This document shows, in pieces, positions 948 through 3,062 of a DNA stretch of 20,000 nt (the stretch's first letter is position 1; each line of letters starts with the position of its first letter). The notes under the pieces were generated by a model, which had not been told where the DNA came from, did not search any database, and saw only the letters and a program-made list of their open reading frames with translations. The translations under genes and the position numbers were made by a program. Source of the DNA: an uncultured virus (IMG/VR IMGVR_UViG_2850711898_000002) (taxonomy: Duplodnaviria > Heunggongvirae > Uroviricota > Caudoviricetes); IMG/VR virus record IMGVR_UViG_2850711898_000002, one strand, 5' to 3'.

Positions 948-2232
948 GTTTGCCATTGGCGTAGAACCCAAACAAGCCATTGAGTTTTTGCGCCAAAAGA
1001 AAATGCTTGCCAGCAAGGTGTTAGTAAAAGAAATGCAGGATAGCGCATTGGCACGTGCCACGACAATTGCGCGCTTAACAAGTCTTGATATGACAAAGGA
1101 TATTTACCAATCTTTAGAAACCGCTATGCGTGAGGGCAAAGGCTTTCACGCTTGGAAAAAAGAACTGGTGAGTGAATTTGAACGTAAAGGCTGGATTTTT
1201 GGGAAAGATCCGTCTATTCGTGGTATTGATGGGCATTTACTGGCAGATCCAAAAACAGGGGAATATTTTGGCACGCCGCGTCGGTTAAATACGATTTATC
1301 GTGTCAATATGCAGTCAGCTTATTCGGCTGCACGTTATCAACGCTTGCGTGATAACGTGGATAATCGCCCTTATTGGCAATATTCCGCCGTGGGGGATGC
1401 ACGTACTCGCCCTGCCCATTTAGCATTGAGCGGTAAGGTGTATCGTTATGATGATCCGTTTTGGGCGACATTCTATCCGCCTAATGGGTTTAATTGTCGC
1501 TGTACGGTGATTGCGTTAGGCGATAGAGATTTGAAACGCCGTGGGATTGATAAGCCTGACGATAGTTCTGAATTTTTGGTGGAAGTAGAACGCCCTGTGG
1601 ATAAGCAAGGTAATCGTGAAAAGACGGTAGGGTTTAAATTACCTGATGGCACGGTACGTGTGACGGATAAAGGCTTTGATTACAATGTGGGGAGATTAAA
1701 CTACAAGCCTAATTTAGATCTTTATCCTGAAAAACTGGCGCATGCGTTTGCGAAGGTTGAGATGAAAGGTGGGGAGTTTAAGCACGATTTTGAATTTTTG
1801 GCAAAGCATGTGGCGGAGATGAAACAAACGCTCAGCCCTGAAGGAAAAAAACTCACTGCTGATCAAATGTTACAGGTGCGTGATAGCCTTACCAAAAATT
1901 TTAAATTTGCAGCAGGTGTCTTGAGTGCGGAAAGTAAGGATTTTTTGAAAAGCAAAACTGGCACAGTGTGGCTTTCTGATGATACTTTAATTAAGCAATT
2001 TAATAGCCGTGATGGGCAAGATTTTGGGATTGATGAGTATGAGGCGTTGCCAGATATCATCAATGCTCCAGATAAAATTGTAGTCGATGAACTAGGATAC
2101 CAATTTTATAAGGATGTTAAGGGTAAGAAACTGCTTGCAGTATTGAAAGTTTTAAGCAAAGAACCAGAAATTTTTGTTCAGTCGTTTAGATTAGTGAGTG
2201 ATAAGCAATGGAGAAAGGCATTTAAAGAGTAA
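931..2232 (+). CDS. MuF (gp30)-family minor head protein with a C-terminal extension (possible PBECR-type nuclease/toxin domain)
   Basis: MuF motifs RLNTIYRVN, YWQYSAVGDARTRPAH and YPPNGFNCRC. About 170 extra residues follow DKGFDYNVG. The nuclease call is inference. Confidence 0.88.
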   Translation: MPSAPKFAIGVEPKQAIEFLRQKKMLASKVLVKEMQDSALARATTIARLTSLDMTKDIYQSLETAMREGKGFHAWKKELVSEFERKGWIFGKDPSIRGIDGHLLADPKTGEYFGTPRRLNTIYRVNMQSAYSAARYQRLRDNVDNRPYWQYSAVGDARTRPAHLALSGKVYRYDDPFWATFYPPNGFNCRCTVIALGDRDLKRRGIDKPDDSSEFLVEVERPVDKQGNREKTVGFKLPDGTVRVTDKGFDYNVGRLNYKPNLDLYPEKLAHAFAKVEMKGGEFKHDFEFLAKHVAEMKQTLSPEGKKLTADQMLQVRDSLTKNFKFAAGVLSAESKDFLKSKTGTVWLSDDTLIKQFNSRDGQDFGIDEYEALPDIINAPDKIVVDELGYQFYKDVKGKKLLAVLKVLSKEPEIFVQSFRLVSDKQWRKAFKE

Positions 2233-2326
2233 GCCACTAGGCGGGGCTCGAACCCACCGCACACAGTCCAAGGTACTATTCAACCTATCGCTTGCGATCC
2301 TCGAGATTCATCGCTTTTCTAGTGGC
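2233..2326 (-). ncRNA. tRNA-like small RNA (not a canonical tRNA), convergent with the MuF gene
   Basis: On the minus strand, 5' GCCACUAG pairs with 3' CUAGUGGC. A T-arm GUGGG-UUCGAGC-CCCGC sits directly before the 3' strand. Internal hairpins are GCGAU/AUCGC and AGGU/ACCU. No encoded CCA. Promoter immediately upstream. Confidence 0.7.
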
Positions 2327-2332
2327 TTGACG

Positions 2333-2361
2333 ACTATACCCCCTTAAATTTAAAAAATCAA
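2333..2361 (-). promoter_or_regulatory. sigma70-type promoter for the tRNA-like RNA
   Basis: Minus strand TTGATT (2361-2356), 17-nt spacer, TATAGT (2338-2333). The G at 2326, first base of the stem, is 7 nt downstream of the -10 box. Confidence 0.7.
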
Positions 2362-2366
2362 CGATT

Positions 2367-2783
2367 ATGATAGACATTGAAATCAATAATGCGCAAGAAG
2401 TTACCGCCTTGCTTGAACGATTAGCGCAAGCCACAGCACATCGTGCGCCTTTAATGCGTAGCATTGCAGGCACAATGGAATCGGCTGTCACGCAGAACTT
2501 TGAAGTGGGTGGTCGTCCTGAGTGGAAGAAATTAAAGCTTCGCCAAGGTACGCCTTTGGTGGATACTGAAAACTTGATGGCGAGCATCACTTCTGAATAT
2601 AATAACAATGAAGCCATTGCGGGGACGAATGAGCCTTACGCAGCTATCCATCAATTCGGGGGTAAAGCTGGACGAGGTCGTAAAGTAGAGATTCCGGCAC
2701 GTCCTTTTTTGGCTTTAACACCTCAAGATGAGGCAGATATTTTGGAAGATATACAAGACTACTTCCAACGCTTAATTAAATAA
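2367..2783 (+). CDS. Virion morphogenesis protein, Mu gpG-like
   Basis: Motifs GTNEPYAAIHQFGG and IPARPFL. Located between F and I as in Mu. Confidence 0.9.
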   Translation: MIDIEINNAQEVTALLERLAQATAHRAPLMRSIAGTMESAVTQNFEVGGRPEWKKLKLRQGTPLVDTENLMASITSEYNNNEAIAGTNEPYAAIHQFGGKAGRGRKVEIPARPFLALTPQDEADILEDIQDYFQRLIK

Positions 2784-2788
2784 ATCAG

Positions 2789-2823
2789 AAAATCGCTCTA
2801 AATCGCACGTAGGGCGATTTTTT
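2789..2823 (+). terminator. Probable intrinsic terminator after gpG
   Basis: AAAATCGCTCTA, 9-nt loop, TAGGGCGATTTT (one G-U pair), running into a T tract. Confidence 0.55.
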
Positions 2824-2847
2824 ACTTTTATGGTATAAGATTTCATC

Positions 2848-2893
2848 TTTAAATTTTTAAAACAATTTAAAACGGTTTTAAAGCGTTTTAAAA
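2848..2893. repeat. Helically phased TTTAAA tracts in the G-I intergenic region (candidate strong-gyrase-site region)
   Basis: TTTAAA starts at 2848, 2856, 2866, 2877 and 2887; the last four are 10-11 bp apart. Mu's strong gyrase site lies between G and I. Confidence 0.5.
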
Positions 2894-2984
2894 TGGGTTT
2901 GGGTTGTTTTCAATCATTCAATCTTTCACGTCTTTAATGTGAGGCTTGTTCCTCATTGTCTAAAATTTCAAATTATTTGGTTGC

Positions 2985-3030
2985 GCTGAAGCCAGTCATC
3001 TCTTGTTATCTTGTTCAATTCGATATTCTG
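2985..3030 (+). promoter_or_regulatory. Putative activator-dependent late promoter (equivalent to Mu P_I)
   Basis: GCTGAAGCCAGTCATCTC, 21 nt, TATTCTG. The same architecture recurs at 14438-14483. No good -35 box. Confidence 0.6.
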
Positions 3031-3062
3031 AAACCCTAGATTAAGTTTTTAAGAGGTTTCAG

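Follow-up and report, generated by a model that had tools for sequence, protein, structure and literature searches.

Which element can take the place of an immunity gene behind a phage virion protein that ends in a ribonuclease (RNase)-like domain? This question is raised by a 20,000-nucleotide (nt) stretch of DNA, here called the window, from an uncultured virus of the class Caudoviricetes (IMG/VR record IMGVR_UViG_2850711898_000002). The stretch is the late region of a Mu-like prophage, and the 134 bp between its MuF gene and gpG (2233-2366) hold a small RNA gene that runs towards MuF from the opposite strand (coordinates in Table 1). An earlier note, made from the sequence alone, had read the pair as a candidate new toxin-antitoxin (TA) system, in which a MuF protein with a C-terminal nuclease-like domain is countered by a tRNA-mimic RNA instead of an immunity protein. 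The analysis described here settles that there is a family of tRNA-shaped, constitutively promoted RNAs, that, in the Mu-like prophages of two bacterial families, it has a tight physical link to the PBECR3 tip of MuF, and that it behaves as a cassette, as arrays and as orphan genes. As to function, we infer with a probability of roughly 0.4 that the RNA is an inhibitor or decoy of injected PBECR3, that is, an RNA immunity factor that would bind and inhibit a putatively toxic domain.

A Cloverleaf RNA Gene Next to the MuF Stop Codon

The DNA that follows the MuF stop codon (2230-2232) is conserved in Haemophilus phage SuMu, where it carries no annotation; it is 86% identical in the nearest genome and virus record and is kept in IMG/VR relatives of MuF down to 47% protein identity. 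A covariance model was built from 26 hand-checked sequences and run on 60 sources, namely the window, SuMu, a Mannheimia phage and loci from IMG/VR; some two dozen further IMG/VR loci, identical in the stretch downstream, were omitted, and a few such duplicates remained among the 60. The RNA was present in all 55 sources in which DNA continues past MuF; in the remaining five, the contig breaks off at the MuF stop or ahead of it. In the structure alignment (56 rows, 44 of them distinct, 27 pairs), 92.2% of cells are paired, compared with 33-45% after a shift of the 3' partners by 1-3 columns. Both sides change in 21 of the 27 pairs, and the covariation score was reached by 0 of 500 shuffles; fitting the alignment to the model works in favour of the structure, but the compensatory changes are plain in the raw sequences too. 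Single-sequence folding of the window was uninformative and did not separate the strands (z -1.06 for minus, -2.66 for plus). The RNA is a real structured element, a four-helix cloverleaf with kissing side loops, and the small RNA genes that encode it, about 90-120 nt in length, form a new family.

The RNA lies tail-to-tail with MuF, and its 3' end directly adjoins the MuF stop codon. Across loci this end falls between -13 and +9 nt from the stop, and in many of them the last MuF codons form the 3' strand of P1. An AAAA linker follows the P1 5' strand, the conserved linker after P3 ends in GUGUG, and P4 meets the P1 3' strand with zero spacer nucleotides. The P2 loop CUCGAG (2305-2300) kisses the P4 loop UUCGAG (2252-2247) in a helix that is 89% paired and in which three of six pairs change on both sides, with variants from CUCGA/UCGAG to CUCCC/GGGAG, CUCGG/CCGAG and CUUGG/CCGAG (G-U). 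The junction linkers are long, conserved and of two types, A (CGAA...GGGA) and B (AGCC...CGAGAGCGUGUG). The P3 loop varies by locus, being 5-10 nt long (GAAUAG- or GAAAUAG-like), a GNRA tetraloop or a long insert. An insertion of about 25 nt also occurs in the P4 loop of one locus (L038).

A protein product of this DNA is not indicated. The open reading frames (ORFs) of at least 40 amino acids (aa) that touch the gap are a 49-aa plus-strand frame (2198-2347) and a 110-aa frame antisense to gpG, with no others, and no conserved ORF lies in the gap. The downstream immunity protein of MuF polymorphic toxins was accordingly not found here, as the earlier note had claimed, and the 94-nt RNA stands there instead. 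Among the 44 distinct homologous RNA units, four have all six frames closed and still keep the RNA fold, which speaks against a protein product. These closed units are the informative ones, the open-frame test being otherwise not discriminating: the other 40 of 44 have some open frame, as expected at about 31 codons.

Likeness to tRNA

Like tRNAs and tRNA-like domains such as those of tmRNA and YrlA/Y-RNA-like RNAs, the RNA has a four-helix cloverleaf with a T-type helix abutting the acceptor helix, a 13-bp coaxial stack of P4 on P1 and, in many copies, a UUCGAG-type loop. In a class sample of one genome per family, all that the model matched outside the family sample was one true tRNA-Asn and one true tRNA-Arg gene, scoring 24-25 bits (L110 1498-1573; L111 1502-1578). 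Because the model cross-matches real tRNAs, the description "tRNA-shaped" is fair, but "tRNA" is not. The D-loop/T-loop contact of tRNA is replaced by a Watson-Crick kissing helix of 5-6 pairs, the linkers are long and conserved, an anticodon loop is missing, and P1 is followed by UUA instead of CCA in the window, CCA being absent there in the other loci read as well. ARAGORN found no tRNA in the window, including the gap between the MuF stop and gpG, and none in the 44 units at default and -ps thresholds. Rfam 15 gave no match at gathering score in the window, the gap included, and, with E allowed up to 10, matched nothing over the RNA either in the window or in seven variant loci. The tRNA mimic proposed earlier therefore stands as far as cloverleaf topology is concerned, but not as an RNA with a conserved anticodon-like loop or one that tRNA finders or Rfam recognise. 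ARAGORN calls made for some units at 60-80% thresholds had inconsistent registers and were not taken as evidence. Rfam matches to SSRC41 (E 7.6, over the promoter region) and terminator-like matches after gpG were likewise rejected.

Strand, Promoter and Expression

Paired cells of the alignment contain 29 G-U and six A-C combinations. This favours the minus strand, since A-C would read as G-U on the other strand. The sigma-70 promoter is also conserved on that strand: of 70 distinct stretches that precede the RNA, 49 agree with the consensus at 9 or more of its 12 positions and have it at the proper distance, versus 4.9% of shuffles, and four of the lowest-scoring stretches precede second units of two-unit transcripts. 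Together with the covariation, these results bear out the earlier claim of a minus-strand, 94-nt, tRNA-like RNA that has its own promoter and ends at the MuF stop. In one RNA-seq run, an 83-nt contig covers 2181-2263 at a word depth of 6594, versus 400-900 for adjacent contigs, which suggests an abundant transcript over the RNA; such contigs give neither strand nor ends, and this one runs 52 nt past the RNA 3' end. Raw reads of another strain (X21) map on both sides with zero depth over 2094-2255, the reads over the RNA being absent because the cassette of that strain differs.

The distance from the -35 box to the gpG start codon is 6 nt, and this position fits an element that acts in cis, through antisense action or transcription interference, in which a strong convergent promoter and a stable structure would damp late F-G read-through in lysogens or set the F:G ratio. 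Transcription that enters the MuF 3' end, as the deep contig does, and the overlap of P1 with the last MuF codons in many loci are consistent with such a role. However, a four-helix fold with a covarying loop-loop helix far exceeds the needs of interference, and arrays and orphans distant from F and G cannot act in cis, so that this explanation appears very unlikely.

The PBECR3 Domain of MuF

MuF extends well beyond its MuF core, as had been noted before. Residues 57-194 match Phage_Mu_F (PF04233, E 7e-28 in Pfam), which is the N-terminal module expected of MuF polymorphic toxins; the protein belongs to PHROG 220, "minor head protein and DNA pilot" (E 4e-92), and the PBECR3 domain occupies residues 325-428. 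The tail had been assigned to the PBECR2 type. A BECR-type domain is supported, but the family is PBECR3 (62 bits) and not PBECR2, which scores 14 bits in Pfam and stays under its cut-off. The MuF proteins of SuMu and the Mannheimia phage also match the PBECR3 family PF18812.

An AlphaFold2 model of the construct (predicted local distance difference test score 84.6) shows a helix at 61-71 followed by four strands at 93-132, which is the layout of the BECR fold. Foldseek against the PDB returned nothing at E <= 0.001 for this model. In an all-against-all structural search (VIA), RNase toxins of the BECR/RelE fold rank first with middling scores (Z 4.5-6.3), including the type II toxin 7vd7 (Z 6.3), BrnT (6.0), the contact-dependent inhibition toxins 7m5f (5.5) and 5i4q (5.3) and colicin D (4.7). 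RelE is also among the top neighbours, and this top set comprises both tRNA- and mRNA-cleaving BECR toxins. The nuclease fold suggested earlier thus finds its counterpart in these neighbours, but the invariant catalytic histidine that would go with it is missing. In numbering by the modelled construct, T, V, W, S, D, K66, Q67, R71, F, Y, P, K117 and S129 do not vary across 30 aligned C-termini; the model predicts K66 and R71 to lie in the helix that normally bears the catalytic His, and S129 in the last strand.

The fusion itself has been described. In Iyer, Burroughs, Anand, de Souza and Aravind 2017 (PMC5512222), MuF-PBECR proteins are reported and RNase or RNA-binding roles are predicted for them, and co-evolution of PBECR with an RNA-based factor is suspected. 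One PBECR family there has Arg for His. In a 2026 preprint on BECR classification (10.64898/2026.08.28.747851), PBECR3 is likewise listed with the colicin-like members, in which a Lys precedes the catalytic His.

Linkage of the RNA to MuF-PBECR3

In the bacterial family of the window, the RNA occurs in 46 of 151 genomes and 26 of 50 genera, with 63 matches in 53 loci, and PF18812 occurs in 36 of the same 151 genomes. A convergent PF18812 match lies 2-35 nt away in 37 of the 53 RNA loci; six others have a diverged or truncated MuF C-terminus on inspection, and one was left uninspected. Conversely, PF18812 without the RNA amounts to seven matches, of which two exceed the Pfam cut-off; these two belong to another MuF lineage with a His-rich helix (IRHILKQHG), which lies in a phage remnant. 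Among 143 further genomes of the order, not one contained the RNA, and PF18812 is confined there to three giant polyvalent ORFs.

Outside the family of the window, Neisseria and Bergeriella also carry the RNA, as found by a DNA-pattern scan followed by the model. The genome-wide scan gave mostly chance matches; 80 loci were fetched among the matches listed, and five of these contain a clear RNA (L127 with two copies, L162, L163, L205 and L201). Within the Neisseria family, 18 of 121 genomes have it, and in N. polysaccharea it lies between gpG and the MuF C-terminus, arranged as in the window.

The RNA had been tied by the earlier note to this C-terminal domain, and it was not found to be equally present beside MuF genes without it. 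In four Mu-like phages with a MuF that lacks PF18812, a run of the model without any filter still gave no RNA; the F and G genes of these phages either abut or overlap. They are Mu (MuF of 439 aa, weak MuF_C match only), BcepMu (a short MuF of 278 aa), Ralstonia YO088_1 (460 aa) and Pseudomonas VW-6B (410 aa). The co-occurrence holds as regards this absence, but it is drawn from a single clade and coexists with RNA loci that have no MuF. Several frameshifted or truncated MuF genes still keep the PBECR3 end together with the RNA (L038 1501-2867; L102; L107; G001:C1:1596526-1596967).

Cassette Exchange, Arrays and Orphan Copies

The identity of locus L013 to the window is 92-100% as far as about 2010, drops to about 50% across 2011-2310 and returns to 75-85% beyond, which delimits an exchangeable cassette of the last MuF codons and the RNA. 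In L004, whose MuF is 99% identical, the differences are almost confined to the P3 hairpin and adjacent linker of the RNA (window 2251-2330), and the stem changes are compensatory.

The RNA also multiplies. Arrays of six (G045), four (G447) and two copies were found, with double units in L035 and five further genomes. The six tandem units of G045 lie between gpG and MuF (L085 3040-3844; G045:C2:121039-121843) in four transcription units, each behind a near-consensus TTGACA-17-TATATT or TACACT promoter; they mix junction types A and B and have three kissing-loop sequences (CUGCC/GGCAG, CAGC/GCUG and CUCGA/UCGAG). Orphan copies stand apart from MuF, and Bergeriella has an orphan array of four among housekeeping genes. 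The neighbours of the nine orphans in the family of the window include genes for inositol monophosphatase, an HslU-type ATPase, an AcrB-type pump with a two-component system, TrkH with shikimate dehydrogenase, and enoyl-ACP reductase, and eight of the nine orphan-bearing genomes have no PF18812 match at all. In being exchanged as a cassette, forming arrays and standing alone as orphans, the RNA behaves much like an immunity gene.

Orphans with their own promoters lie at differing sites (L093 2231-2325; L086 2838-3038; L095, L096, L099, L100, L101, L103 and L106; L246 2230-2994), including a pair and an array of four, and an orphan unit measures about 140 bp. In Bergeriella denitrificans (L127 208-447), a short frame beside the orphan RNA, MIADYIDNIF, resembles the N-terminus of Neisseria gpG, MIDVKIDNIF, and on this account orphans seem to carry a scrap of the phage F-G junction.

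Copies at many unrelated sites, together with a P1 that forms an 8-12-bp terminal inverted repeat, could point to a mobile DNA element instead of a stable functional small RNA (sRNA). A self-cleaving ribozyme that cuts arrays would answer to the dicistronic units, which lie 5-6 nt apart and must be cut somehow. Against both stand the excess of G-U over A-C and the conserved promoter, which indicate an RNA; in addition, the internal helices covary, whereas a miniature inverted-repeat transposable element would keep sequence and not structure, and no Rfam ribozyme matched at E up to 10. We give these two explanations hardly any credence.

Proposed Function and Its Alternatives

According to the inhibitor or decoy model, the RNA, which is transcribed from its own sigma-70 promoter and convergently with MuF, would be produced constitutively from the prophage as well as from orphan copies in the chromosome. 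Its P1 (8 bp) stacks directly on P4 (5 bp), the P2 loop joins the P4 loop, and P3 takes the anticodon position. MuF, as a virion protein, would leave the capsid with the DNA, carrying PBECR3 as a putative RNA-binding or RNase module of BECR fold. The RNA would then bind and neutralise PBECR3 as a pseudo-substrate, serving as the type III-like antitoxin of a polymorphic-toxin-like MuF. Lysogens would be protected from PBECR3 delivered by superinfecting relatives, and perhaps the producing cell would be protected too. Because the acceptor/T-like stack, elbow and junction are retained and the anticodon arm is free, a decoy, if any, would probably mimic the tRNA body and not the anticodon.

Two further proposals build on this model. 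The locus may conceivably be the first of polymorphic-toxin type with RNA immunity, in which a virion-delivered BECR RNase is set against tRNA-shaped RNAs that diversify, move as cassettes with the tip of the toxin, build up arrays and disperse as orphans, for kin discrimination and superinfection immunity among Mu-like phages of Pasteurellaceae- and Neisseria-type hosts, a broad claim that we hold to be possible but doubtful. In a mirror-image variant of equal standing, the RNA may be the exclusion factor of the resident prophage, and injected PBECR3 the counter-weapon that cuts it.

Several observations weigh against RNA immunity, and a first group concerns catalysis. No His is invariant at the canonical BECR catalytic position in the 30 C-termini, and the last 115 residues of the MuF of the window contain none, so PBECR3 may be non-catalytic. 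The RNA could then be the ligand or cofactor of a catalytically dead PBECR3, in a ribonucleoprotein for head assembly, for packaging in the virion or for delivery with the DNA, with phi29 packaging RNA (pRNA) as a loose analogue. The invariance of K66, Q67, R71, K117 and S129 where His is not invariant, the tight linkage of RNA and MuF, and covarying complementary loops that could in principle pair between molecules all suit this explanation, and the PBECR of Mu gp30 is called inactive and probably RNA-binding by Iyer et al. 2017 (PMC5512222). Phage Mu, however, from which this case of RNA binding is drawn, lacks such an RNA; the promoter belongs to the constitutive sigma-70 type and not to the Mu late type, orphan genes and arrays in genomes without MuF are hard to square with virion assembly, and intramolecular kissing would be the natural geometry of a cloverleaf. 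A structural or delivery role of this kind is judged quite improbable.

A second group of contrary observations concerns the linkage. Nine of the 53 RNA loci are without MuF and flanked by housekeeping genes, which fits a MuF-independent function as well. A second MuF-PBECR3 of genome G001, 436 aa long and of another lineage, sits in a phage remnant next to pyrD (L104 2332-3642; G001:C1:~1458600-1459940); with His residues in the catalytic helix, it has neither the RNA nor an evident immunity gene. The positives all belong to one MuF clade in two bacterial families, and ancestry therefore confounds the co-occurrence. Locus L011 swaps the middle of PBECR3 and leaves the RNA unchanged, and junction types A and B do not track protein subtypes (L057; L066 versus L058 and L062). 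This exchange and this independence also favour a moron-type sRNA that owes nothing to MuF, acting as a tRNA-shaped decoy against tRNA-targeting defence nucleases of the host or of rivals, or as a trans regulator, after one ancestral F-G insertion. Orphans and orphan arrays that keep their promoters at many housekeeping sites agree with it, as does the F-G junction of SuMu, which collects other small inserts. The RNA nevertheless always abuts or overlaps the MuF stop, even with other DNA before gpG; the cassette boundaries take in the PBECR3 end and the RNA together, and truncated MuF remnants retain both (G001:1596656, L102, L107). We regard such MuF independence as unlikely, although it deserves serious attention.

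The remaining contrary points concern mimicry, expression and layout. A 7-nt anticodon loop with conserved flanks is not found, P3 being variable, and with no conserved anticodon-like loop, mimicry of an anticodon substrate is unsupported. The RNA-seq contigs, strandless and without defined ends as described above, also count here, as does the course of the deep contig beyond the RNA. Finally, the convergent layout matches no known type III system.

Relation to Known Systems

In type III TA systems, the antitoxin RNA is bound by an endoRNase toxin, which it inhibits and by which it is processed. The locus resembles ToxIN, CptIN and TenpIN in that a structured RNA would neutralise a protein endoRNase, in its relation to phages and in the tandem units of some loci. 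It differs in that their RNA lies upstream on the same strand as tandem repeats of a short, 36-nt type and serves a ToxN/AbiE-type toxin, whereas here a usually single cloverleaf of about 94 nt, single also in the window, lies convergently downstream of MuF, and the BECR-fold domain is fused to a virion protein. Phi29 pRNA is comparable as a phage-encoded structured RNA with two complementary loops that is tied to a portal-associated protein. Its loops pair between molecules and it drives packaging, in contrast to the present RNA, which has a constitutive promoter, orphans and arrays.

With the MuF polymorphic toxins, as presented by Jamet et al. 2017 (PMC5576092), the locus shares an N-terminal MuF and a C-terminal module exchanged with an adjacent downstream element. 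It departs from them in having an RNA gene in place of the immunity ORF, in a swap restricted to the last ~67 residues and in a PBECR3 whose toxicity is putative here. The PBECR polyvalent proteins of Iyer et al. 2017 (PMC5512222) include exactly the MuF-PBECR architecture; unlike the locus studied here, with its linked RNA gene, absent canonical His and invariant Arg 71 in the same helix, they are described in section 19 of that paper without a partner RNA.

No description of the RNA was found in the literature on PBECR, MuF immunity, tRNA-like prophage antitoxins and Mu-like prophage sRNAs, the supplementary sRNA tables for Pasteurellaceae lying outside the search. Term searches of two Pasteurellaceae sRNA papers (PMC4986893, PMC10204968) gave no phage or tRNA-like sRNA; the RNA may appear by a different name in their supplementary tables, which were outside the search. 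Neither a tRNA nor an intergenic element is mentioned in the SuMu genome paper (PMC3447690). NMnc0031 of N. meningitidis, a prophage-island sRNA, was rejected as an earlier description, the 195-nt sequence printed in PMC5449619 having none of the RNA motifs by eye.

PBECR domains are common in phage virion and polyvalent proteins, and the locus provides a concrete, well-supported RNA candidate with a physical link to one PBECR family. Should the RNA bind or block PBECR3, an RNA could confer immunity to an injected phage effector, a new TA arrangement resembling type III would be at hand, and there would be a reason for prophages of Haemophilus-, Mannheimia- and Neisseria-type hosts to keep a highly expressed sRNA inside a late operon. 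Function aside, this is a new structured RNA family with a Watson-Crick loop-loop helix in place of the tRNA elbow, and it merits a curated model.

Gene Neighbourhood

The features of the locus are collected in Table 1.

Table 1. Genes, RNA elements and the exchangeable segment at the MuF-gpG junction of the window.
Feature	Position	Strand	Evidence or remark
Portal gene	ends 947		precedes MuF in late gene order
MuF (gp30-like minor head / DNA pilot protein), 433 aa	931..2232	+	ORF, Pfam, PHROG
PBECR3 domain (MuF residues 325-428)	1903..2214	+	PF18812, E 5e-17, 62.3 bits vs cut-off 30
Exchangeable cassette: last ~67 MuF codons and RNA	2030..2310	.	L013 comparison; X21 read drop-out
Cloverleaf RNA gene, 94 nt (core, P1 to P1')	2233..2326	-	covariance model R1 93.7 bits, R2 93.5 bits; covariation; G-U 29 vs A-C 6
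P1 3' strand CUAGUGGC	2233..2240	-	immediately past MuF stop codon
P4 hairpin, 5 bp	2241..2260	-	2260-2256 pairs with 2245-2241; 97.7% paired; 3/5 pairs change both sides
P3 hairpin, variable length and loop	2271..2286	-	2286-2283 pairs with 2274-2271
P2 hairpin, 5 bp, 11-nt loop	2294..2314	-	2314-2310 pairs with 2298-2294; 5/5 pairs change both sides
P1 5' strand GCCACUAG	2319..2326	-	pairs with 2233-2240; 8/8 pairs change both sides; 97.7% paired
Sigma-70 promoter of the RNA	2333..2361	-	-35 TTGATT 2361-2356, 17-nt spacer, -10 TATAGT 2338-2333
gpG (virion morphogenesis / tail completion)	2367..2783	+	Pfam Phage_tail_S, E 1.3e-26
Mu I-type protease/scaffold gene	from 3063		after gpG

In SuMu (L001 2167-2590), an extra 66-aa ORF, SuMu_29, and more DNA separate the RNA promoter from gpG, so that the F-G junction gathers inserts while the RNA stays against MuF. 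Between gpG and the Mu I-type gene of the window (2784-3062), a terminator-like hairpin at 2800-2820 follows gpG, and an A+T-rich stretch with reiterated TTTAAAA(C/G) words (about 2840-2900) precedes the Mu I-type gene and may be a late promoter region.

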